A stretch of 64,000 nucleotides of DNA, from assembly GCA_963676565.1 (NCBI GenBank), contig OY781089.1:1216001-1280000 (forward strand). Direction: 5' to 3'. Source of the DNA: Halarcobacter sp. Lineage in GTDB: Bacteria > Campylobacterota > Campylobacteria > Campylobacterales > Arcobacteraceae. The notes under the pieces are model-generated. The model had not been told where the DNA came from. It was given only the letters and a program-made list of their open reading frames with translations, and did no database searches. Positions 3,549 to 28,919 of the stretch are shown one piece after another. Position 1 is the first letter of the stretch, and every line of letters starts with the position of its first letter. The position numbers and the translations under genes were made by a program.

Positions 3549-4256
3549 ATGAACAAATCAGATATCACAAATATATTTACTATTCTTCTTTTAGCCTTTG
3601 GTTACAGTACTCAAAACGATACAATTTTTACTATTGGGCTTTTTGCTTTTAGTGGAGCTATTACAAATACTTTAGCTATTCATATGCTTTTTGAGAAGGT
3701 ACCATATCTTTATGGAAGTGGAGTTATAGAAAAAAAGTTTGATACTTTTAAAGCATCAATTCATAATCTAATAATGGAACAGTTTTTTAGTCCTCAAAAT
3801 CTAAAAAAGTTTTTTGAAGATGAGATGAGTAGTGTAAAAAATACTGTTGATTTTGAATATATTTTAAATAAAACAGATTTTACCCCTGCCTATGACTCTT
3901 TAAAAGAAGCAGTTATAGAATCACCATTTGGTGGTATGCTTGGAATGTTTGGTGGAGAATCGGCACTTGAGCCTTTAAAGGAACCTTTTACTAAAAAACT
4001 GCAAGTTTCAATTATAAAAATATCACAAAGTGATTCTTTCCAAAAGGTTTTAGAAGAAGCAATGAAAACTGAAGCTTTAAATGAAGATATCCATGAAAAA
4101 CTAAGTTTAATCGTTACAAAAAGATTAGATGAACTAACTCCAAAAATGGTTAAAGAGATAGTTCAAGAGATGATAAAAGAGCATCTTGGTTGGTTAGTTA
4201 TTTGGGGAGCCGTTTTTGGTGGACTAATTGGATTTGTTTCAACTTTAGTAATATAG
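3549..4256 (+). CDS. DUF445-family membrane protein; integration target of the element
   Basis: GAITNTLAIHMLF N-terminal and WLVIWGAVFGGLIG C-terminal motifs. Confidence 0.8.
   Translation: MNKSDITNIFTILLLAFGYSTQNDTIFTIGLFAFSGAITNTLAIHMLFEKVPYLYGSGVIEKKFDTFKASIHNLIMEQFFSPQNLKKFFEDEMSSVKNTVDFEYILNKTDFTPAYDSLKEAVIESPFGGMLGMFGGESALEPLKEPFTKKLQVSIIKISQSDSFQKVLEEAMKTEALNEDIHEKLSLIVTKRLDELTPKMVKEIVQEMIKEHLGWLVIWGAVFGGLIGFVSTLVI
4215..4240 (+). repeat. attL core (26-bp direct repeat)
   Basis: tttggtggactaattggatttgtttc, identical to 28881-28906. Confidence 0.9.
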
Positions 4257-4293
4257 CCCTATATAAAGGCTTTATGTAGAAAGCATGGTAGTT

Positions 4294-4323
4294 TTTTACT
4301 ACAAAGTTTTACTACATTTTGTA
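4294..4323 (+). repeat. Putative integrase arm-type sites, left
   Basis: ttttactacaaagttttactacattttgta, identical to 28729-28758; tandem TTTTACTACA. Confidence 0.75.
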
Positions 4324-4493
4324 ATAAACCTGCTAATTTTTGATTGAAATTGAAAGAAAAGAGGATGCTCTGATATTAGTTTTAATCCAAAGCTTTACGT
4401 CCTGAACGACTTCCTCTTATAAGAAGAGAATAAATTTTAAGTTTAGACTCCCTAAATGTATATTATATCAAAAAGTTTATATTTTACTTCAAC

Positions 4494-4802
4494 TTGATTT
4501 TGTATAGAAACTTGGTTCTTTTAATATTAAATCAAAAGACTTGGACTAAAGTTGAAAGATATGGAAGAACATTAGCTCAAAAACTAGGGTATATCAACTC
4601 TATTTCTATTGCTAGTTATGATAACATAAATCAAAAGATTGGAAATGATATTGTGATACCAACAAAGCTTTATAGAATTTATTTTAACAATAAAGAAAAA
4701 TTTGAAAAGTGTTTTGAATATGATAATGTATTAGATGTTGATTATAAAAGTGATAAATTAAAAGATCATGAGATAAATTGTGATGTTTTAAAAATAAAGT
4801 AA
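4494..4802 (+). pseudogene. C-terminal fragment of DNA/RNA non-specific endonuclease
   Basis: LNQKTWTKVERYGR...IVIPTKLYRIY; catalytic DRGH region absent. Confidence 0.6.
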
Positions 4803-4918
4803 AATGAAATTGTTTCTTAAGATAGGATATATATGTTAGTAAATACAGAGAGAATGAAAGTAAAATGTATAAATGTTTTTAGAGGCAATGGAAGAAGTTA
4901 TTTAGTTGGAAATACGAG

Positions 4919-5236
4919 ATGAATTATATAAATTGGCTTTACTTTATATCAGAATTTAATAGTAATAAAAAAAGAGTATTTACTTTTATTTATGGTTTAT
5001 CGTTACCTACACAACAAGATATAAAGGACTTACCGATTAAGTCAGAAAAAATAAATAAAAAAATGGCACTTGTATGTTCTGCATCTATTACAAAAGAACC
5101 TTTGCCTATATCAGAAGAATTGAATTTTGATGGATTTATAGGTAAGGAAACTTATTTAACAAATATAGTGCATCACAAGCAAACTTTACATCTACATAAA
5201 AATAGAGACTGTTCAGAGTTTTGTGTCAGTAACTGA
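4919..5236 (+). pseudogene. Hypothetical protein truncated by an IS end
   Basis: Last codons (RDCSEFCVSN) read through the IS256-like terminal repeat starting at 5205. Confidence 0.5.
5205..5228 (-). mobile_element. IS256-family terminal inverted repeat remnant
   Basis: gagactgttcagagttttgtgtca resembles IS256-family ends; same orientation as the tnp fragment at 16825. Confidence 0.55.
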
Positions 5237-5419: not shown

Positions 5420-7381
5420 TTAAATTTCAGTTTTAGGTTCACTAAAATAATAGCCTTGTGAGTAGTCTATCCCTAATTCTTTAACTTTATTAAAAATCAA
5501 TTCATTTTCAACATACTCAGCAATAGTTTTTATATTCATCTTTTTTGAAAAATCTACAATAGTAGACACTATTATTTGAGACTCTTTATTTTTATGCAAG
5601 TTCTTAATTAAAGAACCATCAATTTTTATATAATCTGTTTTTAATTTCATCAAATAAGCAAAATTACTATATCCTGTTCCAAAGTCATCAATTGCAATTT
5701 TACAATTAAATGATTTTACATTTTCTATAAACTCTATTACTTTATCAAAGTTTTCAATTGATTCACTTTCAACTATTTCAAAAACTACATATTTTCCAAT
5801 ATCATATTTATTTAAAAGATAAAAGAGATGTGTTTTAATATCATCATTTAAAATATCTTCAACGGTTAAGTTTATAGAAAACTCTTTTTTAGTCTCACAA
5901 AAAAACTCAAATGTTTTTTCTGTCATAATCTTAGTTATATTAATATATTGTTTAGTCTTTTTTGCAATATCTAGGAAGAAAAATGGAGTGACAAGTCTAT
6001 CATTTTCTTTTAATCTAACCAATGATTCATACTTTTCATACTCTAATGTTTTATTATTAACAATAGGCTGAAAAACTGGAATAATATTATTTGTATCAAT
6101 AGCTTTTTTAATAGATTTTGTCCATTTTATATTATTTTTATATTCATCATTTAGTGAAATTTCATCTCTATATATTATAAATGATTTATTTTCCCTTTTT
6201 GCAACCTTCAATGCCATATCTACAGTTTGTAAAATACTACTTTTCTCCTCTGTTGAAACAGCTGTTGTAAAATTAAGTAATATCTCTTTTGAATTTACTA
6301 TAACATTTACTTTTTTTAATTTATTTTCTATTTCTAATAAGTTTTCAATAAATTCATCTTTTGAAATATTTTTATTATATATAACAAACTCATCACTATG
6401 TATATGATAAATTTCAAGTCCATTATAAGTTAATATAGTTTTAAGATTATTGGAGAATTGAATTAAAACATTATCTCCTGCTTCATGTCCATAAAGTTCA
6501 TTAATCTGCGAAAAATCATCAATATTAATAACTGCCATTGCAGGATTAATAGATTCATCTAAATCATTTAATAGCTTATATCTGCTTCCTAATCCAGTTA
6601 AACTATTTGTATTTGCAATATTATCTAGTTTGTTTTTTTGTTCAATAGTTTCAGTTATATCATGTCTTACTGCAATATATTCATATATTTCACCTTTGTC
6701 ATCAAGTATTGGTAAAATACTCAAATCTATCCAATAATCCCCAAGCTTTCCTCTATTTTTTAAAATCTTTTTAAATATATTTTTAGATTGTATAGTTTTC
6801 CACATCTCTTTATATAAAGATTTAGGGTTATCTGGATGTCTTAAAATATTGTGTGGTTTACCAATAACTTCATCTTGTGTAAAACCTGTAATTTGATAAA
6901 AGTTTTCATTTGCATATGTAATAAAACCATTAATATCTGATTTTGTAACGATATTTGAAGCATTTAGTGCATTTTGATGACTTTTTAAAAATGCTAATGT
7001 TTTATGCAACTCTTGCTGCGCATGTTTCTCTTTTGTAATATCAGAATAGACAGCCATTATATGATGACTATCTAGTTTATATATAATATTTTCTCTATAT
7101 CCAGAAATTCTATCATCTTCATAAAATTTCAAAGGATGGCTAATAGTTTTTCCTGTTTTATAAACTTTATTAAATACATCTAGTAAGCCCATCTCTTTTA
7201 TACCTGGAAATACATCTAAAACATCTTTACCTACAAGATCTTCTCTAGAAAGTTTTTCTAATTCCAAACTTGAAGTATTAACTTCAACTATCTTAAACTT
7301 TTTACCATCATTATCTGCTTTATAAATAACAAGACAATCTGAAATAGTATTTATCAAATTTTTATAAAAGCTTATATCCAT
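5420..7381 (-). CDS. PAS-PAS-degenerate GGDEF-EAL c-di-GMP phosphodiesterase
   Basis: HSDEF replaces GGDEF; ESLVRL, IDDFGTGYS, IKIDGS, SQGYYF. Confidence 0.9.
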   Translation of the reverse strand: MDISFYKNLINTISDCLVIYKADNDGKKFKIVEVNTSSLELEKLSREDLVGKDVLDVFPGIKEMGLLDVFNKVYKTGKTISHPLKFYEDDRISGYRENIIYKLDSHHIMAVYSDITKEKHAQQELHKTLAFLKSHQNALNASNIVTKSDINGFITYANENFYQITGFTQDEVIGKPHNILRHPDNPKSLYKEMWKTIQSKNIFKKILKNRGKLGDYWIDLSILPILDDKGEIYEYIAVRHDITETIEQKNKLDNIANTNSLTGLGSRYKLLNDLDESINPAMAVINIDDFSQINELYGHEAGDNVLIQFSNNLKTILTYNGLEIYHIHSDEFVIYNKNISKDEFIENLLEIENKLKKVNVIVNSKEILLNFTTAVSTEEKSSILQTVDMALKVAKRENKSFIIYRDEISLNDEYKNNIKWTKSIKKAIDTNNIIPVFQPIVNNKTLEYEKYESLVRLKENDRLVTPFFFLDIAKKTKQYINITKIMTEKTFEFFCETKKEFSINLTVEDILNDDIKTHLFYLLNKYDIGKYVVFEIVESESIENFDKVIEFIENVKSFNCKIAIDDFGTGYSNFAYLMKLKTDYIKIDGSLIKNLHKNKESQIIVSTIVDFSKKMNIKTIAEYVENELIFNKVKELGIDYSQGYYFSEPKTEI

Positions 7382-7386
7382 TGAAT

Positions 7387-8529
7387 CTACTTTATCATAG
7401 GTAATGTGATAGTGAACTTTGCACCTTTGTAAGACTTCTCTTCATACTCAAAGATTTCATTCTCTGCTTTAATAGTTCCTTTTAGGTTCTTAGTGATTAT
7501 AGTATGAGTAATATATAAGCCCAAACCTGTTCCATGTATACTTCCTTTTGTAGTATAGTATGGTTCAAATATTTTTGGTAGAATATTTTCAGGAATTCCA
7601 CCTGCATTGTCTTTTATTGTGATTACAATATGATTATGTTCATCTTCTTTAACTGTAAAAATAAACACTAATTTTTCATGTAAAGTAGATGCATCTTTTA
7701 ATGCATCCTTTGCATTATTCAAAATATTTATAATAGCTTGTAAAAGTTGATTTGGGTCACCAAAAGAGTTTATTTTTTCATCTATTTCTTTTACTGTTTT
7801 TATCAAATTATTATCAAATGAAGCACTAACTAAATCAATACATTTGTTTAAATACTCATGTAAATTAAACACTTTAAGTTGATTTTTAGGAGAAAAAAAG
7901 TTTTTAAAATCTTCTATTGTATTAGATAAATATTGAGTATTGTCATTTATCACATCACAGTTTTTATAAAACTGTTCATCTGGTAAGTTATCCATCTCTT
8001 TTAACAGTTTCATCCCTGTAGCTGTTGTTGAGATAGCTGAAAGGGGTTGTCTCCATTGGTGAGCTATATTTGACAACATCTCACCTATTGCAGCTAGCTT
8101 TGATGATTGTAAAAGCATCTGTTCTTTTTCGAAAAGCTCTATTCTAATTTCAATATTATCAATAATATTTAAAATCTTTTTTTCTAAAAGTTCTAAACTA
8201 ATTGGTTTTAGTAAATAACCTTCAACTTGCAATTCAATGGCATCTTGAAAATAATCAACATCACTAAATGCTGTTGTAAAAATAATAGGGATATCTTGGT
8301 TTTTTTCTTTTATTTTTTTACACATCTCAATACCATCCATTACAGGCATTTTAATATCTGTAATAATAATATCAGGTTTATATGCATCAAAATATTTTAG
8401 AGCTTGTATTCCATCATCTGCTGTATAAAGTGTCTCACAAAAAGTTTCTATAACTTCTGCTAACTCCTCTTGAATAGCTTTTTCATCCTCAACATACAAA
8501 ATAGATTTAACTTTTTTAACCTCTGTCAT
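7387..8529 (-). CDS. Hybrid REC-histidine kinase
   Basis: REC (TDIKMP) + IAHQWRQPL H-box + HATPase (DNAGG, GTGLGL). Confidence 0.9.
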   Translation of the reverse strand: MTEVKKVKSILYVEDEKAIQEELAEVIETFCETLYTADDGIQALKYFDAYKPDIIITDIKMPVMDGIEMCKKIKEKNQDIPIIFTTAFSDVDYFQDAIELQVEGYLLKPISLELLEKKILNIIDNIEIRIELFEKEQMLLQSSKLAAIGEMLSNIAHQWRQPLSAISTTATGMKLLKEMDNLPDEQFYKNCDVINDNTQYLSNTIEDFKNFFSPKNQLKVFNLHEYLNKCIDLVSASFDNNLIKTVKEIDEKINSFGDPNQLLQAIINILNNAKDALKDASTLHEKLVFIFTVKEDEHNHIVITIKDNAGGIPENILPKIFEPYYTTKGSIHGTGLGLYITHTIITKNLKGTIKAENEIFEYEEKSYKGAKFTITLPMIK

Positions 8530-10186
8530 TTTTTACCTTTGAAAAATTACTTACTAACTTGTTTCTTCCTTGAGCTTTTGCATTATACAATAATTCGTCA
8601 GCTTCATTATATAGTTTATTTGTACTTTCAATATCTTTTGCTTTTTTACAAACAAGTCCTGCTGATATGGTTAGATATGGTGATATATTATTATTTTCAT
8701 GCTTAACTTTCAAATCTTCAATAGATTTTACTATTATTTTAGTAAATTCAATACCTTTTTCAACACTAAGTGGTTTAAATAAAACACCAAACTCTTCTCC
8801 ACCAAGTCTAAATATATAATCATCATCTCTTTTAAGAGACTTTTTTACAGTTTGTGCTACTATTTTTAAAGCTTCATCACCTTTTTGATGTCCATAAGTG
8901 TCATTGTATTGTTTAAAATAATCAATATCAAACATCACAAAACATACTAGCTTATCATCTCTTTTAGCACCATCTATATAGCTTCCAAAGGTTTGATTGA
9001 AAAAATGTCTATTAAAAACTTGAGTCAAAGAATCTATAGTAGCCAACTCTTCTACTATTTTAAGATTTGTAATATTGTGGTGTATTGAACTGTATCCTAT
9101 TTTTTCACCATTTTCATCATAGTTTGGATAAATTTTTAAATACACCCAATAATCTTCACCATTTTTATTTCTATTTTTTATTTCACCTGTCCAAATTTGA
9201 TTTTGTTTAATTGTTTCCCACAACTGTTTATATACATTTTTATCTATTTGAGGGTTTCTTATTATATTGTGTTTTTTACCTATAAGTTCCTCTTTTTCAT
9301 ACCCTGTTACCTTACAAAAAGCACTTGATACATAAGTTATTACACCACTTAAATCTGTACTTGAAGTTACTACATTTTCATCTATTATTTGAATATATTC
9401 ATTTATCTTATCTTTTGAATATATCTCTTTTGTAATATCTTTTGTAGCTATTAAAATCCTGTTTTTATCAGGCATTAGTGATAGAGAAATATCTAGGATT
9501 ATTTTTTTACCATCTTTATTTATAACTCTTTGTTGAAAATGCTCCACATGATGATTTTTGATTACAGTTAATATTACCTCTTTAAATCTGTTTTTATCCT
9601 CATCTATTGTTATATCAATAGCTTTTAAGCTTTTTATCTCTTTTAAGTTAAACCCTACAATATGTTCAAAAGCATTATTTGCATATAAAAAATGTGTAGT
9701 AAAATCTAAGATTGCTATACCATCTAATGTTGTTGCTAATATAGTTTCTAGTTCAGCTTTTTTCTTAAGTTCATATTGTGTTTTTTTTTCTAATTGTTTA
9801 TTTAAAAGTTCAATTCTAATGGTTTTTATCATCAAAGATTCTAACTTTTCTAAATCTATTGGTTTTATTATATAGCCATCTGCATGTATCTCTATGGCTT
9901 TTTGCAAATATTCTATATCAGTAAATGCTGTAAGAAAGATTATATGAATATCACTGTTTAATTCAAATAAGTTTTTAGCAAGTTCTATACCATCCATTTG
10001 TGGCATTCTTATATCTGTGACAACTATTTTGGGTTGATGTTTTTTATATAATTCTAAGCCTTCAAGACCATCATCTGCTACATATAACTTATCACAAAAA
10101 TCTTCTAAAAACTCTGCAAGTTCATTTTGAACACTTTTCTCATCTTCAACATATAAAATTGAATTTATCTTTTTCATATCTTTCAT
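8516..10186 (-). CDS. REC-PAS-PAS-GGDEF diguanylate cyclase
   Basis: REC (TDIRMP), two PAS domains, RDDD I-site, GGEEF. Confidence 0.9.
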   Translation of the reverse strand: MKDMKKINSILYVEDEKSVQNELAEFLEDFCDKLYVADDGLEGLELYKKHQPKIVVTDIRMPQMDGIELAKNLFELNSDIHIIFLTAFTDIEYLQKAIEIHADGYIIKPIDLEKLESLMIKTIRIELLNKQLEKKTQYELKKKAELETILATTLDGIAILDFTTHFLYANNAFEHIVGFNLKEIKSLKAIDITIDEDKNRFKEVILTVIKNHHVEHFQQRVINKDGKKIILDISLSLMPDKNRILIATKDITKEIYSKDKINEYIQIIDENVVTSSTDLSGVITYVSSAFCKVTGYEKEELIGKKHNIIRNPQIDKNVYKQLWETIKQNQIWTGEIKNRNKNGEDYWVYLKIYPNYDENGEKIGYSSIHHNITNLKIVEELATIDSLTQVFNRHFFNQTFGSYIDGAKRDDKLVCFVMFDIDYFKQYNDTYGHQKGDEALKIVAQTVKKSLKRDDDYIFRLGGEEFGVLFKPLSVEKGIEFTKIIVKSIEDLKVKHENNNISPYLTISAGLVCKKAKDIESTNKLYNEADELLYNAKAQGRNKLVSNFSKVKNDRG

Positions 10187-10192
10187 ACTTCT

Positions 10193-12049
10193 TTAACCCT
10201 TCAACTCAATAGTGATTAAAACACCATCATTTTCATTTTCAATTCTTAGTTTGCCACCCATATTATCTTCAATTATCATCTTTGACATATAAAGTCCCAT
10301 CCCTGTTCCTTCACCTTGCTGTTTTGTGGTAAAGTATGGTTCAAATACTCTATCTATTATATTTTGTGGTATCCCTCCACCATTATCTTTTATCTTTATT
10401 ATATCTTCTTTTATATCTATTTGGATTTTTGGATTTTGGATATTATTTTGTACTAGTGCATCTTTTGAGTTACTTATTAGGTTTATAATTACTTGTTGAA
10501 ACTCTGTTTTAAACCCTACATATAAAAAATCATCTCCATTTAGTTCTAAATCTATATGGTGGTTTTTTAGTTGTGCATTTTGGATATTTAAAACCTCTTC
10601 TATTGCATCTTTTATATGAAAATCTTTTTTCTCTTTATCTATTCTAAAAAAGTTTCTAAAATCATCTATTGTTTTACTCATAAAATCTATTGTATTTTTA
10701 TTCTTTTTTATAAACTCTTTTATAAACTCTTCATCTATTTGCTCTTTTGCATAGTTATATTTTAGTTTTTGTATTCTAATACTTAGTTCATTTAATGGTT
10801 GTCTCCATTGATGGGCTATTGCTCCTATCATCTCTCCCATTGAGGCTAGTTTACTTTGTTGGATAAGTGCTTTTTCTTTTTCTCTTCTTAGAGTTACTTC
10901 ATTTTTAACTTTTTTTTCTAAATTTTTTTTATAATCTTCAGTTTGAAGCAATAACTCATTTGTTTTATTATTTAAAAGTTTAAACTCTAAAGCTGCTTTT
11001 ATTAGTTTACCTATAATATCATCTTGCTTATATTCAGGTATTTTAACCTCTTTTTTATCTTGTAAAATATCCTCAAACATTAAAGTTAAGTTTTCAATTG
11101 GTCTTAATAAAACTCTTATTAGTAGGAAAAAACTTATAAAAACTAAAATAGTATAAATGATGCTCATAATAAGGTTTGAGTTTTTATTTATACTAAGTAA
11201 ATGGTCTATCTCATTTTTTATTTCACCAATCTCTTTAAAACTAATTTGCTTAATACTTTGAGCATAATAGTCTATTTCATAAATATTTCCTGGCATTACA
11301 ACCTTTGTAATCATAGAATAAGTTCTATAGTGAGAAATTGTTTTGTTTGATAGTCCTATAAGTTTTAAAACTTTTTTTTCTATAAATTTTTTCATCTTAC
11401 TATCTAATTCTTGGTTACTTTTAAATAGTTCTTCTAAAAGATATTTTAGATTTAATTGCTCTTTTTTCAGCTTTATAATAAAACTTCCATCATCTGTTTC
11501 AAAATATCTAAATACAGCTTTTTCAATCTCTAAAATAGATTTTTTAAATAAAATTAAATCAAATAAAGATTTTTTAGATGAGATATCTATTTTCAAATTT
11601 TCTGCTATGTTTTCTAAGTTTTGAGCTTCTTGTCTCACATTTTTACGAAAATCAAAATTAAGAGGTATTTGTTCTTCTGCTATTTTAAAATCTTCTCTAA
11701 ACCTATCTATATTTTGAATAATTTTTGTAAAAGAGTAATATAAATTTTTATCATCAATAAAGTTGATGTTCTTATCTATATTTTTAAAGTTATCTAAGGT
11801 TTGATTTATATATATTAATAGTTCATCATCTCCAAAACGAATAAATTCATAGACATTTTTATGAAGTTTTTCTGTTTGAGATACAAGAATTAATAAGTTT
11901 TGCAAAGAATCATTTTTTTGATTTAGTTTTTTTATATTATTTGAGATATTTTTAATATTTGATTGATGAATTATAGCTGATATTACAAAAAATGTCACAA
12001 GAAAGAAAGACAATATATATATTTTATAATGAAATTTTATATTATTCAT
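10193..12049 (-). CDS. Membrane sensor histidine kinase (periplasmic helical sensor, HAMP-like)
   Basis: Two TMs, IAHQWRQPL, GTGMGL. Confidence 0.9.
   Translation of the reverse strand: MNNIKFHYKIYILSFFLVTFFVISAIIHQSNIKNISNNIKKLNQKNDSLQNLLILVSQTEKLHKNVYEFIRFGDDELLIYINQTLDNFKNIDKNINFIDDKNLYYSFTKIIQNIDRFREDFKIAEEQIPLNFDFRKNVRQEAQNLENIAENLKIDISSKKSLFDLILFKKSILEIEKAVFRYFETDDGSFIIKLKKEQLNLKYLLEELFKSNQELDSKMKKFIEKKVLKLIGLSNKTISHYRTYSMITKVVMPGNIYEIDYYAQSIKQISFKEIGEIKNEIDHLLSINKNSNLIMSIIYTILVFISFFLLIRVLLRPIENLTLMFEDILQDKKEVKIPEYKQDDIIGKLIKAALEFKLLNNKTNELLLQTEDYKKNLEKKVKNEVTLRREKEKALIQQSKLASMGEMIGAIAHQWRQPLNELSIRIQKLKYNYAKEQIDEEFIKEFIKKNKNTIDFMSKTIDDFRNFFRIDKEKKDFHIKDAIEEVLNIQNAQLKNHHIDLELNGDDFLYVGFKTEFQQVIINLISNSKDALVQNNIQNPKIQIDIKEDIIKIKDNGGGIPQNIIDRVFEPYFTTKQQGEGTGMGLYMSKMIIEDNMGGKLRIENENDGVLITIELKG
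10206..10861. repeat. 656-bp direct repeat, copy 1 (kinase DHp+CA region)
   Basis: Reads identical to 13327-13982. Confidence 0.9.
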
Positions 12050-12052
12050 AAC

Positions 12053-15659: not shown

Positions 15660-15666
15660 CTCCTAC

Positions 15667-17441: not shown

Positions 17442-17549
17442 ATGTTTCAAAAGTTAAGAAAGTTCTGTGTATTCACAACTAAGCCAAAATTCGATGATTT
17501 AGTTTGTGATGGAAGGAAATGGATAAATAGAAATAGAGGTGTGTCATGA
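17442..17549 (+). CDS. 35-aa small protein (not in ORF track)
   Basis: AAGGAG RBS; MFQKLRKFCVF...NRGVS; ATGA overlap with next ORF. Confidence 0.55.
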   Translation: MFQKLRKFCVFTTKPKFDDLVCDGRKWINRNRGVS

Positions 17550-17731
17550 AGATGAAAGAGCAACTTCAAAAACAGCAAGATGAAGAGTTTCAAAAGGATC
17601 TATCTTTTGCACAATGGCATGATTTCTTCTCAAAAGAGCCTACAAGTAAAGAACTTAACGATATGGAAGATGAAGCTTGTAAAAACAAACCTCAAAACAA
17701 TCCATATTATCAACCACTACAAGGTGCTTAA
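17546..17731 (+). CDS. Hypothetical protein
   Basis: AGAGGT RBS, operon position. Confidence 0.6.
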   Translation: MKMKEQLQKQQDEEFQKDLSFAQWHDFFSKEPTSKELNDMEDEACKNKPQNNPYYQPLQGA

Positions 17732-20020: not shown

Positions 20021-20316
20021 TGGAATTAATACCAAATGAAATAAAAGAAAAAATTCCTAAACTATATGATACAGAAAATATTTCAGACCCTATTGTTCAT
20101 ATAAAATTATTCTTAGATAGATGGACATGGTATATAATAGAGATATCAATTGATAATGATATTTGTTTTGGATATGTAGTTTCACCATTTGAAAGTGAAT
20201 TGGGATATTTCAGTCTTAATGAAATTAAAGAAATAAAAGGAAGTCTAGGGCTTGGTGTTGAAAGAGATTTATTATTTAAACCTACTAATTTATCAAAATT
20301 AAAAAAAGCTTCTTAG
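20020..20316 (+). CDS. DUF2958-family protein
   Basis: IPKLYDTE, WTWYIIE, ELGYFSLNEI, VERDLLF. Confidence 0.85.
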   Translation: MELIPNEIKEKIPKLYDTENISDPIVHIKLFLDRWTWYIIEISIDNDICFGYVVSPFESELGYFSLNEIKEIKGSLGLGVERDLLFKPTNLSKLKKAS

Positions 20317-20640
20317 ATGGACAATTTATATATTAAAGATGAATCAGATATTGGTCATCTAAATTGGACAAAGGAAGGATGGGAATTTCTTCTACAAAGT
20401 AACGAGTTTAAAGAACTTGCGATAATCACACTTTCTAAAATTTTGGATCTGTATCAAAGAGTTGAATTTAAATACAATAATCTCTATTATGAAGTATTTG
20501 ATTCTTCAAATAGTGGGTATATTATTAATGTATTTTCAAGTGATATTAAAGATGAAGGTGGATATTACTTGGAAGATAATTTTGTTGATGGTGGACTATG
20601 TACTGGTAGTTCTAAAGATGCAATTGAGTTTATGTTGTAA
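20317..20640 (+). CDS. Hypothetical protein
   Basis: Abuts DUF2958 gene; acidic; VDGGLCTG tail. Confidence 0.65.
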   Translation: MDNLYIKDESDIGHLNWTKEGWEFLLQSNEFKELAIITLSKILDLYQRVEFKYNNLYYEVFDSSNSGYIINVFSSDIKDEGGYYLEDNFVDGGLCTGSSKDAIEFML

Positions 20641-20760: not shown

Positions 20761-21187
20761 TGCCTAAAACTCTACTTTATGGTTTTAGGCATTATATTTA
20801 TTGGGTAAAAGTTTGGGTATTTTGTAATAAACTTTTTTCTTTTCTTTTTTTCAATATTTATTTATATTTATAATATTTCACACAAATGAGATTCCATAGG
20901 GGAATCTTTCTTTGGTGAATATTGTGAAATATAAAAGAACTGTAGACTGTTATTACAGTTTATGGGATATGTAAAAACTATGATAAAGATAGTTTTTACA
21001 GGGATGCCCAACTTTTTACCCAAAATCTCAAGATCTAACAGAATTAGTAAATCATTATGAATTCAATATAAGCTAAATAGCAATATTCTAGTTCTATTTT
21101 CCATTAAAACTTAAGCAAAATGCCTCTAGAATCCTATTAGGTTAATAATAGGAAAAGCCTCGTTTAGTAACGGGTTTTAGGCAGTTT
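20761..21187 (+). other. Highly structured non-coding region (candidate ncRNA or single-strand origin)
   Basis: Several nested stems; the imperfect pairs are mostly G-U/G-T on the + strand. Confidence 0.55.
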
Positions 21188-21214: not shown

Positions 21215-23236
21215 TTAATCTCTAAAGATTTTGTATCTTTTTTTACCCTGATATTTGCTTTTATCTGTTGGTGTTTCATTATACATCCTTCCTTTTCCCT
21301 GTAAGATTTTAATAAACTCATTATTATCTGGGATTAGTTCTTCTTGATGAATAATATTAAAGTACTTACTAAGCATTGGCTGTGCAATCATCTCTTCTTT
21401 TAAATTGTATAGCAATTCATTATAGACATCTTCATCATATTGTTGTATAGATTGAAAAGCATCAATATTCCTTTTGAAAATATCCTCTACAAAACAATCA
21501 ATCTTTCTATCAATTTTTGGTGTAATAAGTACACCATTTTTCATTGTACTCAGATAAGTTTTCTCATCAGTATTTAAGATAGTTAATGGATAATTGTCTT
21601 GAGCATATTGAACTAATCTACTGGTAAAATAATCAATATCATCAGTCATAGATTTTTCAAAATCAGAATAATCCATATCTAATTTATTTAAAATACTTTC
21701 AATATCTTTAACTCTAAGAACAGAACAACTACTTAAAATATTCTTCAAATATGAATAAGGGCTCTCTTTACTTGCTGTAACAAGAAGTTCACCGTAGATA
21801 TATTGTTCATCATTATCCCAAGCTTCATTGGGTGTAATATGATTAGGCTTTACAATGCTTCTTATGAGTTTACTAACTCTTTTTGTATCAGTTTTACTGT
21901 TAAGGTTATTGATATGATAAAAAATCTTGTCTTCTAATAATTTTTCATTTTCACTCTCTTTTTCTAAAATAGTGTTACTAATGGTACTAAGATACTTCTT
22001 TTTTTTAATAAATATTGGTTTAACAATGAAGTCCATTATAATATCAGTAGTTTCCTCATCTCCTATAAGTACAAGTGCAATATTTGATTTCTCTAAAAAC
22101 CAGAAGAAACCAGATAACCATGTTATAAAAAAATAGAACTTTTCTTCATTTTGAAAAACTAGTCTAAGAAACTGTTCTATAAAGCTGTTATCGTTAGTTA
22201 CCAATGAATCCTTAATGAAGTTCAAGTTATTTTGTTTTTCTCTAAGTTGATTATTATAGATATCTTGTAGCAAAGGTAAATTTGGATAGTGAAGCTTTTG
22301 CTTTATATTATTTATTTCATGTTCTAATTGAACAAGATATGTAGGATATAATCTCTTCTCCAATAATTTTGTGTATTCAAAAGTGTTTCTATCATAAAGA
22401 TTATTGCTGATAAATATAAACTCATTATTTGAAAATGGGTTGAAGATATTTTTTCTGACGGTAGGTAATAGCGAAATTATTATATAATCTGCATCTATAA
22501 CCTGTACATCATTTGCAGAGTCATATATATTTATATAAAATCCTATTATATCAGCTATTTCATTCTTAGTGATTTTTTGTTCTTTTTCAAATGATTTTTG
22601 TCTATAGTAGAGTTTATTGTTTTGATCTTTCCATATTTTTAAGTCTTGATTGCCTAGTAAATCAACTGTTCTATTGTGGTTTTTAATAATTTTATTTTTT
22701 GTATCAATATCTTTTTGATAAAGAAAGTTTTGCTCAAACTCTATTATTTTTTGCTGTTGTGAAATAAGGGCTAAATCATTAATCCATTTTTCATTAGTTT
22801 TGATGATTTCTTTGTTATTGTTATTTGTATAAGTGGGAATTGATGACATGGGTAAATGTGTTGGGTTATAAGTTTGAACTGCTTGAGCAGATGTTGTATT
22901 ATCAAGATTCAAAGTAATTTGATTAAAATATTTTTCTAAAAGTGTTATATTATCTAGATTATTTATATCTATATCCATAAGTTCACTACTATCTCGAAGT
23001 AAGGCTTTAAAGATTTCAAGAGCTAGTAACTCTTCTTGCGTGTAGTTATCAAAAAATCTCTCAGGATTCTCTTCTTGATTATTGTAAGAATCTATAAAGT
23101 TTACATAATCTTTAAAAAGTTTTACTATTAAACTATTGTGTCTTGTACTATTTGTGTAGTTAAACTGATTATTATCTAACATAAAGATTATTTCATCACA
23201 AATATCAATTTTCCAATTTGATTTATTGTCTACCAT
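21215..23236 (-). CDS. Degenerate SF3/DUF5906 helicase-like protein
   Basis: WLSGFFWFLEKSNIALVLIGDEETT aligns with WLAHMFVFLNKSQVAFVLRGVQGSGK of 24352..25902. Confidence 0.65.
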   Translation of the reverse strand: MVDNKSNWKIDICDEIIFMLDNNQFNYTNSTRHNSLIVKLFKDYVNFIDSYNNQEENPERFFDNYTQEELLALEIFKALLRDSSELMDIDINNLDNITLLEKYFNQITLNLDNTTSAQAVQTYNPTHLPMSSIPTYTNNNNKEIIKTNEKWINDLALISQQQKIIEFEQNFLYQKDIDTKNKIIKNHNRTVDLLGNQDLKIWKDQNNKLYYRQKSFEKEQKITKNEIADIIGFYINIYDSANDVQVIDADYIIISLLPTVRKNIFNPFSNNEFIFISNNLYDRNTFEYTKLLEKRLYPTYLVQLEHEINNIKQKLHYPNLPLLQDIYNNQLREKQNNLNFIKDSLVTNDNSFIEQFLRLVFQNEEKFYFFITWLSGFFWFLEKSNIALVLIGDEETTDIIMDFIVKPIFIKKKKYLSTISNTILEKESENEKLLEDKIFYHINNLNSKTDTKRVSKLIRSIVKPNHITPNEAWDNDEQYIYGELLVTASKESPYSYLKNILSSCSVLRVKDIESILNKLDMDYSDFEKSMTDDIDYFTSRLVQYAQDNYPLTILNTDEKTYLSTMKNGVLITPKIDRKIDCFVEDIFKRNIDAFQSIQQYDEDVYNELLYNLKEEMIAQPMLSKYFNIIHQEELIPDNNEFIKILQGKGRMYNETPTDKSKYQGKKRYKIFRD

Positions 23237-24281
23237 AGGGAAACTCCTTTGTATTGATAAGTTCCTCTATCTTTTTATACGAAAGGTATGTTGCGTCATA
23301 TATCGCTTCTCTATCAAATTTAAATTCAGGTTCGTTCCCATATCTATTTTTTTGATTTTGGATGATCTCTTCTGCCTTTGCTATTTGTTTTGATTCTAGG
23401 TATCTCAAATCATAAGTAGCGTAACTTGAACTAGTATTTAAATCTCTACTTATGAAGTTTAAATTATTCAAATGTAGATTTTCACTACCTCCTAAAGCAA
23501 GTTTTTGACTAAAGAATTTAGCGATAGCAGATATATCTTTGTCAAACTCTAAAAAAGATAGTCTGTATATAATAATAGATAATCTATTTAATAAAACTTT
23601 TTCATTTACAAACATCTTAATATCATCAAGAATTAAATTTTGAAAACAGTACTTTTTTGAAGTATACTCTGTATCTCTAAGTATTTTGTTAAACATAAGA
23701 GGGTAGGGCTCTCTAATAATAGTTTCATAAATATAGTTACCAATTTTATGATACTCTTTATTTATCATTAGTGCCAATAATGGTAACTTTTTGATATAGT
23801 TTATGTGTTCTTCTTGTTCTGTTAACTCGGGCTTTGATAAATCATGATCTAATCCATTTGTGAGTTTATTCAAAAGTTGCTCGGTTAGAAAATCTTTTCT
23901 AAATCTACTGTTTAGATTAAGAGAATAACCTTTGAGTGAAACACATAAAATAGGTCTATATATTTCGATAAAATTAGGTGTATGTAGTGTTACTAAAATT
24001 ATATTTCTATTTTGTTCATATTTAAGATCTGGTATGTTGATTGACCATGTAAAATATACTGAATATAATCTTGTTGCAAAACAGTTATTGTTATCTTCAA
24101 GAATTTCTTCTTGTTGTTCATTCATAATAGTTCTGATAAGTTTTTTAACTATTTGGAAAGTTCGCATTCCATGACTTTCTACTTGCAAATTTAATATTTC
24201 TTCATTATGTACATTGTTTTTTGTATTGACTAACCAATGTTCACATAGTTTAAAGCTATTATCATAGGGTGTTATAAACAT
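23223..24281 (-). CDS. Hypothetical protein
   Basis: 352-aa ORF with AAGGAG RBS; overlaps downstream gene. Confidence 0.7.
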   Translation of the reverse strand: MFITPYDNSFKLCEHWLVNTKNNVHNEEILNLQVESHGMRTFQIVKKLIRTIMNEQQEEILEDNNNCFATRLYSVYFTWSINIPDLKYEQNRNIILVTLHTPNFIEIYRPILCVSLKGYSLNLNSRFRKDFLTEQLLNKLTNGLDHDLSKPELTEQEEHINYIKKLPLLALMINKEYHKIGNYIYETIIREPYPLMFNKILRDTEYTSKKYCFQNLILDDIKMFVNEKVLLNRLSIIIYRLSFLEFDKDISAIAKFFSQKLALGGSENLHLNNLNFISRDLNTSSSYATYDLRYLESKQIAKAEEIIQNQKNRYGNEPEFKFDREAIYDATYLSYKKIEELINTKEFPYGRQ

Positions 24282-24351: not shown

Positions 24352-25902
24352 TTATAAGTTAAAGTAGTATTCGTTAGATTTTTTTCGTAGCTCTCTTGAA
24401 AATTTTGTTGGTTCGTATATCTCAAGCTTATCAAGTAGTGCTTGAGTAGACATAGTAAAATCACCAGGATTTACTGCGATAAAGGCAGGTAACATATCTC
24501 TTTGATATATTCTTCCTTTTTTGAATCCAGAAATAATATTTGCATAGATGATAGAATCCTTCGCTTTTAATGGTTCTAAATACTCTATATCTTGAGTTAA
24601 GAGTGCATTAATGAACAATTTAAATCTATCATTCGTTCCTTTGACTAAAGCTTTTTTCTCAGGTGTATTGAGTGCTTTATTTGCAAGGTTTGTATCTATT
24701 GGATAGTTTTTCAAGTACAGTGCCAAATCTGGCAATTCTGATTCTAATTGTTTTTTGAAAATTTTAAAATCTCCAAATCCAAAAAAGTTACATTCTTCAC
24801 TTGATATATTTCCAGCTGTAGACAGTACAGTGTATCTTCTATCTTCTGGTTCAATTTCAAGAATGTATGCTTCATTTGAAGTTATCAATATTTGAGCAGT
24901 TAACTTAATTGGTTTAGAAATATTTTCATATTTTTTTTCACCTGCAAACTCTGAATCAGTCACTAATTCTTTTAAAGAATTTTTATTTTCTTTATTAGAT
25001 TTTATATCATGTGACATCTCATTGATATTGATAAAAAGTTTATTCTCAAATACACTACCTAGAAATTGTGATTTAAGAGTTTTGTTCCCTACTGTAAAAC
25101 AGAACTCTTTGCCAAATAATATAGATATAATTTGATTAAAAAAAATACCTTTGCCACTTCCTTGTACACCTCGAAGTACAAAAGCAACCTGAGATTTATT
25201 TAAAAATACAAACATATGAGCTAACCAGTTTATAATATAATAAAATCTCTCTTCATCATAATTTACTAAGTGTGCTATTAGTTTCAACGAATATGTTGGC
25301 TTTTTGTAAGGTTTATTTTTATTTAGCATCAAAATTTTATTAGGCTTAAACTTATTCATTTTATAAATATTTCCTTCTTTAAAAAATTCAGCCATGACAT
25401 TAATAGCAAAAACAACTTCAGTAACTAGCATAATATCATCATGAGTAATATCAGGTGGTCTTTCTTTTGAACCTCTTCCTATTACTACATATTCTCCAAT
25501 AAGTTTACTTATTACGATACTAGCTTTATCTGGGGTAACTTTTTTAAAATCTGTATCAGGTGCTGATCTCAACATCAGATTGCCATCATCAAACATAATT
25601 AATGCTCCACCAGCTTTTTCTAATTTGATAAGGCACTCGTTATCATTAACTCTAAAATTATTGAATTTGTATTCTGAAAAATTAGGTGCTGGCTCCAATT
25701 TATCCTTTTTTATCCTATCTTGAAATCCCTTACCATCACAAATAATATTTGTATTTGTGATTTCTATTTTCTTATTTTTATCAAATATATTGTCAGTAGT
25801 ATTTACCTTCTCTTGCAATATAATATTTTCATTATTTTCAGTAGATTTTTTATTATCTCTAAAAATTTTTTTTTCAAAAAAATTACTATTAAAAACTTCC
25901 AA
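24352..25902 (-). CDS. SF3 (D5/DUF5906-like) helicase ATPase
   Basis: Walker A GVQGSGKG, Walker B FININE, motif C ILITSN, EDRRY. Confidence 0.85.
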   Translation of the reverse strand: MEVFNSNFFEKKIFRDNKKSTENNENIILQEKVNTTDNIFDKNKKIEITNTNIICDGKGFQDRIKKDKLEPAPNFSEYKFNNFRVNDNECLIKLEKAGGALIMFDDGNLMLRSAPDTDFKKVTPDKASIVISKLIGEYVVIGRGSKERPPDITHDDIMLVTEVVFAINVMAEFFKEGNIYKMNKFKPNKILMLNKNKPYKKPTYSLKLIAHLVNYDEERFYYIINWLAHMFVFLNKSQVAFVLRGVQGSGKGIFFNQIISILFGKEFCFTVGNKTLKSQFLGSVFENKLFININEMSHDIKSNKENKNSLKELVTDSEFAGEKKYENISKPIKLTAQILITSNEAYILEIEPEDRRYTVLSTAGNISSEECNFFGFGDFKIFKKQLESELPDLALYLKNYPIDTNLANKALNTPEKKALVKGTNDRFKLFINALLTQDIEYLEPLKAKDSIIYANIISGFKKGRIYQRDMLPAFIAVNPGDFTMSTQALLDKLEIYEPTKFSRELRKKSNEYYFNL

Positions 25903-25916
25903 AATATACTCCTTTA

Positions 25917-26111
25917 TTAAGAATCTAAGAAAGATGCAATTTCTTCAAGAGTAAAGTAAATCCCACCTCCCACTCTTTTTGATGATATAGCGTTTTGCTT
26001 TCTAAGCCTGTCTAAAGTCGCTATACTACAGTTTAGCTCTACCGCTACTTCTTTTTTCTTTAATAACGACTTTGTTGGATATTTCTGTCGCAAATAGTTT
26101 AGATTTGACAT
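25917..26111 (-). CDS. Excisionase/AlpA-like HTH protein
   Basis: LLKKKEVAVELNCSIATLDRLRK...GGGIYF; near integrase. Confidence 0.8.
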   Translation of the reverse strand: MSNLNYLRQKYPTKSLLKKKEVAVELNCSIATLDRLRKQNAISSKRVGGGIYFTLEEIASFLDS

Positions 26112-26207: not shown

Positions 26208-27485
26208 CTAAAATAGTTGTTCTGAGTTTATTATATTAATGTATTTAATATCATCGATATATGGTTTTATCCATGTATAGTAATTATAGGCTGTGCCAGA
26301 TGAAATAAAAGATTCTTTAAATTTAGTTTCTTTAAAAATATAGTGTTTTGATGTTTTATTAATAGATGGTACATTTAATGGCTTTAATTTTTCATGTTGT
26401 ATAATTTCTTCATATGGAATTCTATCTTTTGCTTTTTGTTGATCTGTTAAATATCTGTCATCATTAATTTTTTTTATATTATTTATAGCCTCTTCTAAAA
26501 TAACATTCTCTAAATTTTCTTCTTCTCGTTTTTTATTTTCTTGCTCTACTTCTTCTACTCTAAATTTGTAATAGTCATAGCAAAAGAATGTATCAGCAAG
26601 TGCCATTTGTTTTTTTATTTTTACTTCAATAATTTTGAAAAAATCTTCTAAAAATTTAATTACTTGTTTGTGAAGTATTAAATGGTTTGATGAAAACTTA
26701 AGTATATGATCTGTTAGTAACTTTCTTTTTGTTAGAGGATATAAGTTTCTTGTAATTTTGTTATTATCGTCATCAATAGTTGTCTCAATATAGTAAGTTC
26801 CTTTATATTCACGCTTTATATATAAAGATGTCGAAGGAGATTCTTCATATTCCTCATCATTTCTCTCTTCATTTTCTTTGTAGTAATAGAGAAGAAAATC
26901 TATATATAACTCTTTTTTAATTATTTCAGGTATAACTAATACAAAATCATATAACCAATTAAAATATTCTATTAAAACATTATTATTGCAATATTTAAAA
27001 TCTAAATCTTCTATTTCGTCATTAGTATTTTCAATTTTTAATTTATTTTTTATTACATTTTTAAAATCATTAAAATCTAATTTAAAAATTTTCTGTTGTT
27101 CTCTATCAAGTTTTTCTAAAGGATCTTTTTCATATCTTTTTAAAGCTTCTTCAAAATTATCTTTTTCAGATTTTTGTTCAATTATTTTAGAACTAAAAGG
27201 GTATAAATCAATACCTTCAATAATAGTGGTATTGTTTTCATTATTTGTAAAATCTTTAGAAGGAATAGTTTCTAATTGAGCTTTGTTAATATTTTCATCT
27301 ATTTTTTTATGTAATCTTTCACAATATTCAAATTTTTTTTCAAGTTCTTTAAACTTTTTTGTTCTTATAGCCATTTCATAAAAAACATTATTGATTAACT
27401 CAAAATCTTTAAAATTTTCTATTTCTTTATATATCTCATCATCTCGTCTAGGTATTCTTTCTTTTTGTTTATAGCCCATAGTCAA
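26208..27485 (-). CDS. Hypothetical protein coupled to the integrase (possible regulator)
   Basis: 425-aa ORF overlapping the int 3' end. Confidence 0.7.
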   Translation of the reverse strand: MTMGYKQKERIPRRDDEIYKEIENFKDFELINNVFYEMAIRTKKFKELEKKFEYCERLHKKIDENINKAQLETIPSKDFTNNENNTTIIEGIDLYPFSSKIIEQKSEKDNFEEALKRYEKDPLEKLDREQQKIFKLDFNDFKNVIKNKLKIENTNDEIEDLDFKYCNNNVLIEYFNWLYDFVLVIPEIIKKELYIDFLLYYYKENEERNDEEYEESPSTSLYIKREYKGTYYIETTIDDDNNKITRNLYPLTKRKLLTDHILKFSSNHLILHKQVIKFLEDFFKIIEVKIKKQMALADTFFCYDYYKFRVEEVEQENKKREEENLENVILEEAINNIKKINDDRYLTDQQKAKDRIPYEEIIQHEKLKPLNVPSINKTSKHYIFKETKFKESFISSGTAYNYYTWIKPYIDDIKYINIINSEQLF

Positions 27486-28653
27486 TTATCTCCATATCAT
27501 CTTCTATATTTAAATACTTCATTGTTGTATCAATTTCTGTGTGGTTTAAAAACCTTTTAGCATGAACGATTCCAAATTTTTTGTAAACCTTAGTCGCAGC
27601 AGTTCTTCTCATTGTATAAACGCTAACTCTATATGCTAAGTCATATGTTCCAATATTCTGATTAAAATGTTTATCAAATATTTTTCTTAATTGTTCTGCA
27701 TATTTTTGATATCTTGTAGATTGGTTCTTGAATGCTTCTTTTTCATACTTTGTTGTAGCTCTTTTATATAGTTGTTCTGGATAGAATATACAATTATCAT
27801 GTACTAGGTTATGTTGAGTAATCCAATTTTTTAACAAAGTTAATAACTCTTGGCTTACTCTAGCATCATAGGGTTTACCTTGTTTCATGGCTCTAATATG
27901 AATCGTTCCTTTATTAAAATTGATATGTTTAACTTTAATATCTATCACAGCTGATGGTCTTGCACCAGTATGATAACATGCCTTTAAGAACAATAATAAT
28001 CTAGGTTTAGTGATGAAATCATCTAAGTTCCAAAGCTTTTCAAGCTCTTCATCAGATAAAACTCTACCTGCTTCATTTCTATCAACTTTGATTATATCTT
28101 TTATAATTACTGGATTTTTATCTGTATATCCTTGTTTTATTGCCCAATTAAAAAGTGCTCGTAAATAACCTATAACTTTTTTTACTGTTCTAGGGTTAAA
28201 TGGTGTACCTTGCCTTGATGGAGTTTTTTTTAGAGTGTCGCCAAGGTTTTTAATATCTTCTGTTTTTATTTTAGTGATTTTCTTTTTTCCTATATATGGG
28301 TTGACAAGTCTATTATATGCAGATTCAATCATATCTGTTGATTTTGCTGTTTTAGTTGGGAAGTAAAGTTTTGCTACATCTTCAAGGTTTAAATTATTAC
28401 TCATGACTTTTTGACGTAAAAGTGAAGAGTCTTTTTGTATCTCTTTTCTATCTTTTGATATTTCTATCTTTTTGTCATTTAGTATTTTTAAGGCTTCCTC
28501 TTTACTTGTTGCATCACATTTAACTTTTTGGGGTTTATTTTCAATATCCCTATACATGATATAATAGGCAATTGTTTTTTTATCGTGATCAGAGTCTTTA
28601 TAGTATTCGTATATGCTATTATACTTTTTGCCTTTTACTTTTCTAAAACCCAC
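27469..28653 (-). CDS. int: Tyrosine recombinase/integrase
   Basis: TGARPSA (R), YTMRR, LNH, TTMKY; SAM-like middle domain. Confidence 0.95.
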   Translation of the reverse strand: MGFRKVKGKKYNSIYEYYKDSDHDKKTIAYYIMYRDIENKPQKVKCDATSKEEALKILNDKKIEISKDRKEIQKDSSLLRQKVMSNNLNLEDVAKLYFPTKTAKSTDMIESAYNRLVNPYIGKKKITKIKTEDIKNLGDTLKKTPSRQGTPFNPRTVKKVIGYLRALFNWAIKQGYTDKNPVIIKDIIKVDRNEAGRVLSDEELEKLWNLDDFITKPRLLLFLKACYHTGARPSAVIDIKVKHINFNKGTIHIRAMKQGKPYDARVSQELLTLLKNWITQHNLVHDNCIFYPEQLYKRATTKYEKEAFKNQSTRYQKYAEQLRKIFDKHFNQNIGTYDLAYRVSVYTMRRTAATKVYKKFGIVHAKRFLNHTEIDTTMKYLNIEDDMEIIDYGL

Positions 28654-28728
28654 TACTTTACCTCTTTACTACAAAATAAATGTTAATATGTCATCCATAA
28701 TTTATATATTAACATAATAGATATAATG

Positions 28729-28758
28729 TTTTACTACAAAGTTTTACTACATTTTGTA
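28729..28758 (+). repeat. Putative arm-type sites, right
   Basis: Identical to 4294-4323; extra tttactacaaa at 28665-28675. Confidence 0.75.
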
Positions 28759-28880
28759 TGAAAATAGCAGAAAAATGAGAAAATATGAAAAAAATTAAGA
28801 AAATAAAAACTACTGTAAAGCTTTACTTTAAGGGATATTGAATGAGATTGATGAATAGTGATCAAAGTATGGGGTTAGTA

Positions 28881-28919
28881 TTTGGTGGACTAATTGGATT
28901 TGTTTCTACTTTTCTTTAG
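28881..28919 (+). repeat. attR core plus displaced 3' end of the DUF445 gene
   Basis: 26-bp core at 28881-28906; reads FGGLIGFVSTFL-stop. Confidence 0.9.

Follow-up and report, generated by a model that had tools for sequence, protein, structure and literature searches.

An integrative cargo island without recognizable packaging or transfer genes in Halarcobacter

How might an island that encodes an integrase, a helicase and recombination proteins, but no recognizable packaging or transfer gene, come to spread among bacterial chromosomes? The question is raised by an element at positions 4215..28906 of a 64-kb stretch of the Halarcobacter sp. chromosome (G000:C1:1216001-1280000, hereafter the window), which belongs to a complete genome of 3.34 Mb with ~27% G+C. 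Homologues of the proteins encoded in the window carry the names Arcobacter, Halarcobacter, Aliarcobacter and Malaciobacter. An earlier reading of the letters alone (the original prediction) had proposed an integrative element with integration, replication and recombination modules, and genes of each type were indeed detected with Pfam, PHROGs and NCBIfam. We show that a 24,666-bp circle was inserted here by a tyrosine integrase, through a crossover within a 26-bp core at the 3' end of a DUF445 gene. With slightly better than even confidence, we take the element to be a site-specific integrative, probably self-replicating and not self-transmissible cargo island of a tycheposon-like kind.

Insertion of a 24,666-bp circle at the DUF445 gene

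The target gene encodes a DUF445 membrane protein of 235 amino acids (aa) on the + strand (3549..4256; Pfam DUF445, E 2.3e-14), and orthologues were found in 39 of 61 relatives. A repeat scan detected two direct repeats of 35 nucleotides (nt), identical at 33 of 35 positions and spaced 24,666 nt apart. The left copy, attL (4212..4246, +), contains a perfect 26-bp core at 4215-4240. The right copy, attR (28878..28912, +; core 28881-28906), is followed by the native 3' end of DUF445 and a terminator-like hairpin at 28918-28942. The two mismatches between the copies flank the core. These positions coincide with the limits of the original prediction, which had named att repeats at both ends and the same circle size.

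Of the 29 DUF445 loci in relatives, 16 were searched with the flanks by blastn. A sister species, G014, has matches to both flanks (left, 95.5% identity over 1775 nt; right, 95.6% over 1536 nt). They lie on a single contig with ~63 nt in common, so that DUF445 is followed directly by the Usp gene and the site is empty. In the alignment with G014, attL has the host base on the left side of the core and that of the element on the right, and attR the reverse, as predicted for a crossover inside the core. The region is therefore not a fixed part of the core genome: a close relative has the site unoccupied, in agreement with the discrete, site-specific element originally proposed.

The last ~5 codons and the stop of the DUF445 gene at 3549..4256 come from the element. 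The C-terminus encoded at attL is unlike the native end at attR and in G014, and it resembles that of another species, G010; the element provides the gene with a substitute end and a hairpin. Among the 29 DUF445 loci, the 26-bp core is present exactly in 3 (of the G004, G007 and G030 types), with at most one mismatch in 5 and with at most two in 10. No tRNA gene that could serve as a target of the 24.7-kb element is present in the window, and an Rfam scan of 3000-30000 at E<=0.1 gave no match.

The integrase gene faces inward at the right end (27469..28653, −; Pfam Phage_integrase 64.8 bits). R232, K257, R349, H371 and Y380 are invariant in an alignment with four family integrases, and a tyrosine replaces the first histidine of HxxR, as it also does in the integrase of G072. 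A 64-aa HTH_17 protein of the excisionase/AlpA type (xis; 25917..26111, −; Pfam 28.5 bits, PHROG 66) is encoded nearby. The 9-nt motif TTTACTACA occurs 6 times in the 64-kb window, where 1.44 matches are expected, and none of 100 shuffles reached 6. Five of the six copies lie within ~220 nt of the att cores, all on the + strand: two on the left (4295..4316), within a 30-nt block that is repeated at the other end, and three on the right (28665..28751). From position and enrichment, these copies are candidate arm-type sites for the integrase, those on the left for the P' arm and those on the right for the P arm.

Four public sequencing runs, seen as contigs only, were compared with 9200-29150. 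The listed joints are short-sided (20-38 nt) and lie in repeated histidine-kinase sequence; none links attL to attR, and the contigs speak neither for nor against excision. Contigs of one run from a different study (X1) cover 25217-28937 with 12, 1, 0, 0 and 2 differences per piece, carrying a near-identical segment of integrase, 425-aa gene and xis and crossing attR into the same host flank. In the same run, the helicase piece (24377-25009) has 52 differences and the Rad52 piece (19307-20207) has 66, an identity of ~92-93%. As a lead from contigs only, this suggests that a mosaic variant occupies the site and that modules are shuffled between elements.

Variability downstream of DUF445 is not confined to the element. 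G014 shares the segment that follows attR, 28913-40122 (Usp, an OmpR-type regulator, a kinase and others), as far as 30412 or beyond, and G010 has ~3.4 kb of other genes in its place and regains synteny at 40123. G010 had been suspected of a related element at this site, and was found instead to carry genes for a hydrolase, a class II tRNA synthetase and a GDSL lipase. In G006 the right flank (28870-30438) is 93.6% identical, but the DUF445 gene and left flank only ~77-79%, which suggests recombination or transfer at the right junction. G002 has the full DUF445 gene on one contig and, on a second contig of 2.6 kb (C29:1813-1926), an isolated 114-nt copy of its 3' end, which may mark where another insertion at DUF445 terminates. 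We rejected it as a relative of the present integrase insertion since the adjacent open reading frame (ORF) is unrelated to the integrase of the window.

Replication block, recombination operon and cargo

The backbone on the − strand runs in the order integrase, 425-aa protein, xis, SF3 helicase, 352-aa protein and inactive helicase; ORF and Pfam scans recovered the order given by the original prediction. The 516-aa SF3 helicase (DUF5906/VapE; 24352..25902, −) has a Walker A motif, GVQGSGKG. Its N-terminal ~200 aa contain no recognizable primase, with a weak D5_N lead only, and the NCBIfam model for the C-terminal part of the P4 primase scores 24.1 bits (cut-off 108.7). The closest database relative is the primase-helicase of the temperate Nitratiruptor phage NrS-1, at 28.7% identity. 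The 673-aa protein (21215..23236, −) is a DUF5906-type SF3 paralogue: it aligns to the 516-aa helicase at E 7e-11, and a protein atlas groups it with DUF5906 primase-helicase clusters (score 0.96). It lacks both the GK of Walker A and the acidic residue of Walker B, as expected of the 'dead helicase' that had been named there. When ten helicase-like proteins of the family described below were aligned, the Walker A GK was present in four (the 516-aa protein, G096, G072 and the G074 c48 protein) and replaced by GR in G029. Walker A and the Walker B acid are both missing from the other five: the 673-aa protein, its G096 orthologue, a 1003-aa protein of a second element in the same genome (29% identical to the 673-aa protein, E 2e-25), and proteins of 540 aa in G074 and 546 aa in G102. 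The recurrence of the inactive type in five loci argues for a conserved component and not a recent loss.

Structure-based searches were run on the two proteins that the original prediction had left as unknowns, and they were informative for one of them. The 352-aa protein (23223..24281, −) has 65 homologues, all unnamed. Its AlphaFold2 model has a pLDDT of 80.7, and the best Foldseek and VIA matches of the model are all SF3 helicase cores: the C-terminal region of NrS-1, the SaPI5 primase-helicase, PriRep1, poxvirus D5/E5 and the adeno-associated virus (AAV) protein Rep40. These matches involve residues 1-165 and are weak (best Foldseek E 0.017; VIA Z 7.3 to 5); no G-K-[ST] Walker A motif was seen in the sequence, and a profile search of the PDB found nothing. 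As the fold matches are below Z 8, we tentatively assign an SF3-helicase-like fold to this predicted model. By hhalign, the protein matches cluster c17 (probability 97.7, E 2e-12) and cluster c18 (93.1, E 3e-7), whose genes adjoin the DUF932 operon in six other loci, and by these profile matches it is a member of a conserved backbone family. Cluster c14, a 346-aa neighbor in the second element, was rejected as a relative of the 352-aa or 425-aa family (hhalign probability <1).

For the 425-aa protein (26208..27485, −), between the integrase and xis, the structure searches gave no fold match: the best E was 0.22 in the PDB profile search and 0.17 with Foldseek, and a wide VIA search gave a best Z of 5.9, to helical hairpins only. 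This uncharacterized family has 50 close homologues and 185 relatives at E<=1e-3 in a profile search of 1.84 billion representatives; 29 of the 30 representatives scanned, out of these 185, have no Pfam domain. The N-terminal motif is also found between int and xis in G018.

Facing this block on the + strand is an operon of four genes (17874-20316), so that the two are convergent as originally proposed. It encodes a DUF932 protein (17874..18692; Pfam 99.9 bits, PHROG 12094 E 7.9e-59), a Gp157-like protein (18696..19295), a Rad52/Rad22-family single-strand annealing protein (19307..20020; Pfam 115.4 bits) and a DUF2958 protein (20020..20316; Pfam DUF2958 44.8 bits). The Gp157-like protein scores 25.4 bits with Pfam Sipho_Gp157, below the cut-off of 28.6; its paralogue in the second element, 47% identical, scores 38.3 bits. 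Homologues of the DUF932 protein were found in at least 5000 plasmid records, 4455 of them typed as conjugative, versus 27 phage records, mostly of jumbo phages. In two plasmids DUF932 lies among genes for SSB, JAB/RadC, a methylase and ParAB. Rad52 homologues were found in 25 phage records. Upstream of DUF932 is a 61-aa ORF (17546..17731, +; cluster c19), which has tblastn matches from G105b and G008 and a 67% identical copy in the second element. After DUF2958 follows an uncharacterized 107-aa ORF (20317..20640, +), 69% identical in G111. A hairpin at 20888..20908, terminator-like on both strands, separates the convergent operons. A scan for sigma-70 promoters (88 sites versus 84.3 expected) was uninformative because of the AT-rich DNA. 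The plasmid-type DUF932, together with the phage-type matches of the helicase and Rad52, makes the backbone a phage/plasmid mosaic.

To examine gene content, all ORFs of the element of >=60 aa were scanned with Pfam, PHROGs and NCBIfam, and 18 proteins with PADLOC. Across these scans no capsid, terminase, portal, relaxase, coupling-protein or primase-domain match was found, novel families being possible; the list of absent functions in the original prediction is thus borne out. Pfam, PHROGs and NCBIfam likewise detected no terS, tail, head-size or interference gene in the element, and Pfam no relaxase and no type IV secretion system (T4SS) gene; an oriT is not recognizable without a reference. 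None of the 18 proteins matched a PADLOC defense model.

The left part of the element is occupied by ~11 kb of signaling cargo, which the original prediction had omitted along with two gene fragments. Pfam identifies seven signaling and binding-protein genes on the − strand (5420..16386), absent from the empty site of G014: PAS-GGDEF-EAL (5420-7381), a response-regulator/histidine-kinase hybrid (7387-8529), a response regulator with PAS and GGDEF domains (8516-10186), a histidine kinase (10193-12049), an SBP_bac_8 binding protein (12053-13312), an SBP_bac_3-histidine kinase (13305-15659) and an SBP_bac_3-like protein (15667-16386). From its domains, the cargo appears to be a sensory cyclic di-GMP (c-di-GMP)/two-component cassette. 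The kinase cores of the two histidine kinases share a 666-nt duplication with 1 mismatch (10196..10861 and 13317-13982, −), which points to recent gene conversion or duplication. Also in the left part are a 105-aa ORF and a 102-aa fragment of a DNA/RNA non-specific endonuclease (4494..4802, +; Endonuclease_NS 20.8 bits, cut-off 23; PHROG nuclease E 6e-12). This nuclease (cluster c20) is full-length, 226-233 aa, in G008 and G105b. The second fragment, 128 aa of the C-terminus of an IS256/Mutator transposase (16825..17211, −; Transposase_mut E 9.6e-25, profile 277-377 of 379), has a full-length 400-aa relative in G072.

A family of islands in the Campylobacterales

We define an Arcobacteraceae DUF932-Rad52 island family by the operon in its fixed order, an SF3-like helicase and/or a gene of the 352-aa/c17/c18 type, and variable cargo; the element in the window has all three. 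Judged from these sequence comparisons, the family appears to be widespread and barely described, with the DUF932-Gp157-Rad52-DUF2958 operon as its mark. Of 184 species genomes of the Arcobacteraceae, 33 have a match to the Rad52 marker at E<=1e-8 and, by our reading of the search table, 25 at E<=1e-60. In an order-level sample of 401 genomes it occurs in 10 of 362 Campylobacterales genomes outside the Arcobacteraceae, in four families, a count that rests on the Rad52 marker only. A contig scan with Rad52, a method that reaches close relatives only, gave two loci.

Thirteen loci of 34-40 kb each were clustered: 11 from relatives, chosen among the best Rad52 matches on long contigs, and the two elements of the present genome. 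The operon has the same gene order in 13 of 13, and an integrase of the same loose cluster lies within the fetched 34-40 kb in 9. The layout is collinear in some members (integrase, helicase, c18, operon, c7 and cargo, e.g. G072) and convergent in the window element, the second element, G029 and G096. In G096, from another genus, counterparts of xis, the helicase, the 352-aa protein and the 673-aa protein are 71, 65, 51 and 51% identical and converge on the same operon, so that the gene order of the window recurs in relatives and the element belongs to a recurring family. Family integrases are mutually only 21-28% identical and the flanks of the loci differ, which indicates that the module travels with different integrases to different sites.

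Cluster c7, a gene of ~200 codons after the operon, is present in 8 of the 13 loci (G015, G072, G073, G074, G099, G100, G105a and G008); neither element of the present genome has it, nor does G029. The c7 proteins match REP_ORF2-G2P and YagK_YfjJ_C and have an HxH motif in all 8 cases; by these matches, c7 is a probable HUH rolling-circle-type nuclease, and it may act as a nickase for rolling-circle replication or mobilization in those members. Scans of proteins from the relatives (32 cluster representatives and 82 singletons, >=140 aa) gave no capsid, terminase, portal, relaxase or T4SS protein, with the exception of one weak TraG-D_C match in G100 (E 4.9e-6, no stretch passing alone). That protein (486 aa, L098:1680-3140) adjoins the DUF932 operon and is the sole transfer-related hint in the family.

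The second element in the same genome (G000:C1:2351461-2388309, 36.8 kb) lies between tRNA-Leu(CAA) and a 19-bp repeat of the tRNA 3' end, beside a 430-aa integrase. Its operon is 93% identical to that of the window in Rad52, 79% in DUF2958, 47% in Gp157 and 35% in DUF932, and its only helicase-like protein is the inactive 1003-aa one. The cargo comprises a type III restriction-modification (R-M) system, RmuC-like and Ppl-like proteins, a Wadjet-like system (MksE, DUF3584, DUF7281), WYL, a HerA-like protein, an LHH nuclease with a SUKH immunity protein, a dynamin-like GTPase and AbiEii. Anti-phage defense makes up the cargo of most relatives, with SIR2-HerA and type I R-M in G029 and, in others, Kiwa KwaB, McrBC, Mrr, GmrSD, KAP NTPase, RhuM, UvrD-PD(D/E)XK, zeta toxin and WYL. 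Some relatives carry sugar-metabolism clusters, radical-SAM clusters or sensor GGDEF genes. Next to the backbone in G099 (L094:2453-6472), a gene for an AadA-type aminoglycoside nucleotidyltransferase lies between two IS4-like DDE transposase genes.

Mode of spread and comparison with known systems

If the element is a tycheposon-like cargo island, Xis-assisted excision would release the circle, and the circle would be maintained by a replication block in which one SF3 helicase is apparently active and two SF3-like paralogues are inactive. Since no primase is recognizable, priming would fall to the host or to an unrecognized protein. The convergent operon would act on single-stranded DNA (ssDNA), as an annealing and 'establishment' module, during replication or upon entry into a new cell. 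Transfer would use machinery encoded elsewhere. Entry as ssDNA, through mobilization by a conjugative element or natural transformation, would be favored over phage packaging, given that DUF932 is mostly a gene of conjugative plasmids and that the annealase works on ssDNA; we give this preference modest odds. That the element depends on a helper, and whether 'satellite' or 'integrative and mobilizable element' is the better term, are points on which the original prediction and we alike can only infer; neither an oriT nor a pac or cos site was seen in the element.

Several observations weigh against such an island. No excision product, circle or change in copy number was observed in the public runs, which were seen as contigs only. 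The element showed no primase, origin or iteron array (Tandem Repeats Finder and intergenic repeat scans gave short, weak repeats only), so that replication is deduced from helicase homology alone. The element has neither a relaxase nor c7, the HUH Rep-like gene that 8 of the 13 loci carry. The genome has no match to VirB4 (PF03135), the PF03432 relaxase, the HK97 capsid or Terminase_6N, and with these four families probed no resident helper of either kind was seen. For the 516-aa helicase, plasmids gave no match and phages four distant ones, NrS-1 being the best, and Gp157 and Rad52 are typical phage recombination genes; both point to a phage link. Finally, the nuclease and transposase fragments show some decay.

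The phage link is what one would expect of a satellite with the lifestyle of phage-inducible chromosomal islands (PICIs) or P4, in which a helper phage induces the island, the SF3 block replicates it and helper capsids package it through a pac or cos mimic, the island itself having no capsid-remodeling genes. The integrase-xis-SF3 helicase layout, the helicase and recombination genes just mentioned, the SaPI5 primase-helicase among the top fold matches of the 352-aa model, and the defense-rich cargo of relatives, which resembles P4/PICI hotspots, all speak for it. We nevertheless consider a satellite unlikely, as Pfam and PHROGs found no terS, capsid, portal, head-size or interference gene, the two capsid and terminase families probed have no match in the genome, a scan of viral contigs with DUF932 gave no locus, and DUF932 is rare in phages (the 27 records). 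In addition, typical PICIs are smaller than 24.7 kb, and the two elements measure 24.7 and 36.8 kb. A different account of the missing functions is that the element is an immobile remnant, now fixed, of a larger prophage, an integrative and conjugative element (ICE) or an active island, with a backbone kept by drift or domestication. The two fragments, the missing HUH gene, the catalytic death of two of the three SF3-like proteins and the lack of a helper in the four probes would fit this account. However, no backbone ORF is broken, the compact block has been retained in a different genus (51-71% identity in G096), and the dead helicase type recurs in the window, G096, the second element, G074 and G102. 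The two copies of the att core are identical, the site is empty in a sister species (~95.5% identity), and none of the 13 related loci contains structural or T4SS genes as a source for decay; the helicase, for its part, does not mark the element as a piece of a known prophage or ICE. The backbone thus looks conserved and not decaying, and we doubt that it is a remnant.

Natural transformation could also be the main route and not an accessory one: Campylobacterales-wide islands would enter naturally competent cells as ssDNA, Rad52 with DUF932, DUF2958 and the dead SF3 protein would rebuild and briefly replicate the circle, and the integrase would insert it, with no helper packaging and no relaxase. 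We regard this specialization as quite improbable. That the locus is not mobile at all, a variable chromosomal region with chance repeats, could draw on the variability of the site, where G010 has other genes after DUF445 and synteny resumes only at 40123. Against it stand the 33/35 repeat lying exactly at the insertion limits relative to G014, the integrase at one end and the arm motif enriched at both, and we give it almost no credence.

If the tycheposon-like reading is true, a sizeable share of the Arcobacteraceae (the 33 of 184 genomes with the Rad52 marker) and some other Campylobacterales carry one modular island family. These islands would move defense systems (type I and III R-M, Wadjet-like, SIR2-HerA, Kiwa, McrBC, GmrSD and AbiE), and in the present case a ready-made c-di-GMP/two-component sensing cassette. 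The family would then be a tractable system for the spread of islands without packaging or conjugation genes, and for the roles of DUF932, DUF2958 and inactive SF3 paralogues, all of them frequent in the backbones of plasmids and islands.

Each of several known systems shares part of this design. The leading, or anti-defense, regions of conjugative plasmids also contain DUF932, there next to SSB, JAB/RadC, methylase and ParAB genes; unlike them, the element has no relaxase or T4SS match, no oriT was seen in it, and its annealase is of the Rad52 type. A possible likeness to islands of the E. coli CP4-57/CP4-6 type comes from the match of c7 in the relatives to Pfam YagK_YfjJ_C, but the window element has no YagK/YfjJ-like gene. 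With PICIs and P4-like satellites, the element shares an integrase, an xis/AlpA-type helix-turn-helix protein and an SF3 helicase, in which no primase domain was found, as well as the defense cargo of its relatives. It differs from them in its larger size and in lacking terS, capsid-remodeling, psu/delta/sid and cos-associated genes.

The suggestion that the family may be undescribed holds only in part, as integrase-bounded islands and the general design have been reported before. At the level of titles and listings, full-text literature mentioning DUF932 or DUF2958 showed no such element. Within the same bacterial family, ABGI1-3 of A. butzleri RM4018, reported in 2007, have a terminal integrase and direct repeats of 21-25 bp, as the window element has a terminal integrase and direct repeats (PMC2147049). 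ABGI1 lies at a tRNA-Leu 3' end, like our second element, and ABGI2, as many relatives do, has type I R-M genes; the accessible part of that report gives no backbone description or mechanism for them (PMC2147049). The closest likeness is to the tycheposons of Prochlorococcus, a different host lineage, and it is one of layout. The four-gene operon and inactive SF3 paralogues set the present element apart from tycheposons as far as these are described in the part of the preprint available to us (bioRxiv 10.1101/2020.12.28.424599), as does its target, the 3' end of a protein-coding gene; the sister element targets a tRNA. Of 501 tycheposons, 419 are without packaging or conjugation genes according to the same source. 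As in cargo tycheposons, an inward-facing tyrosine integrase stands at one end with a small replication module, including a helicase, adjoining it, and niche or defense cargo of up to 10 kb or more is carried by members that mostly lack packaging and conjugation genes.

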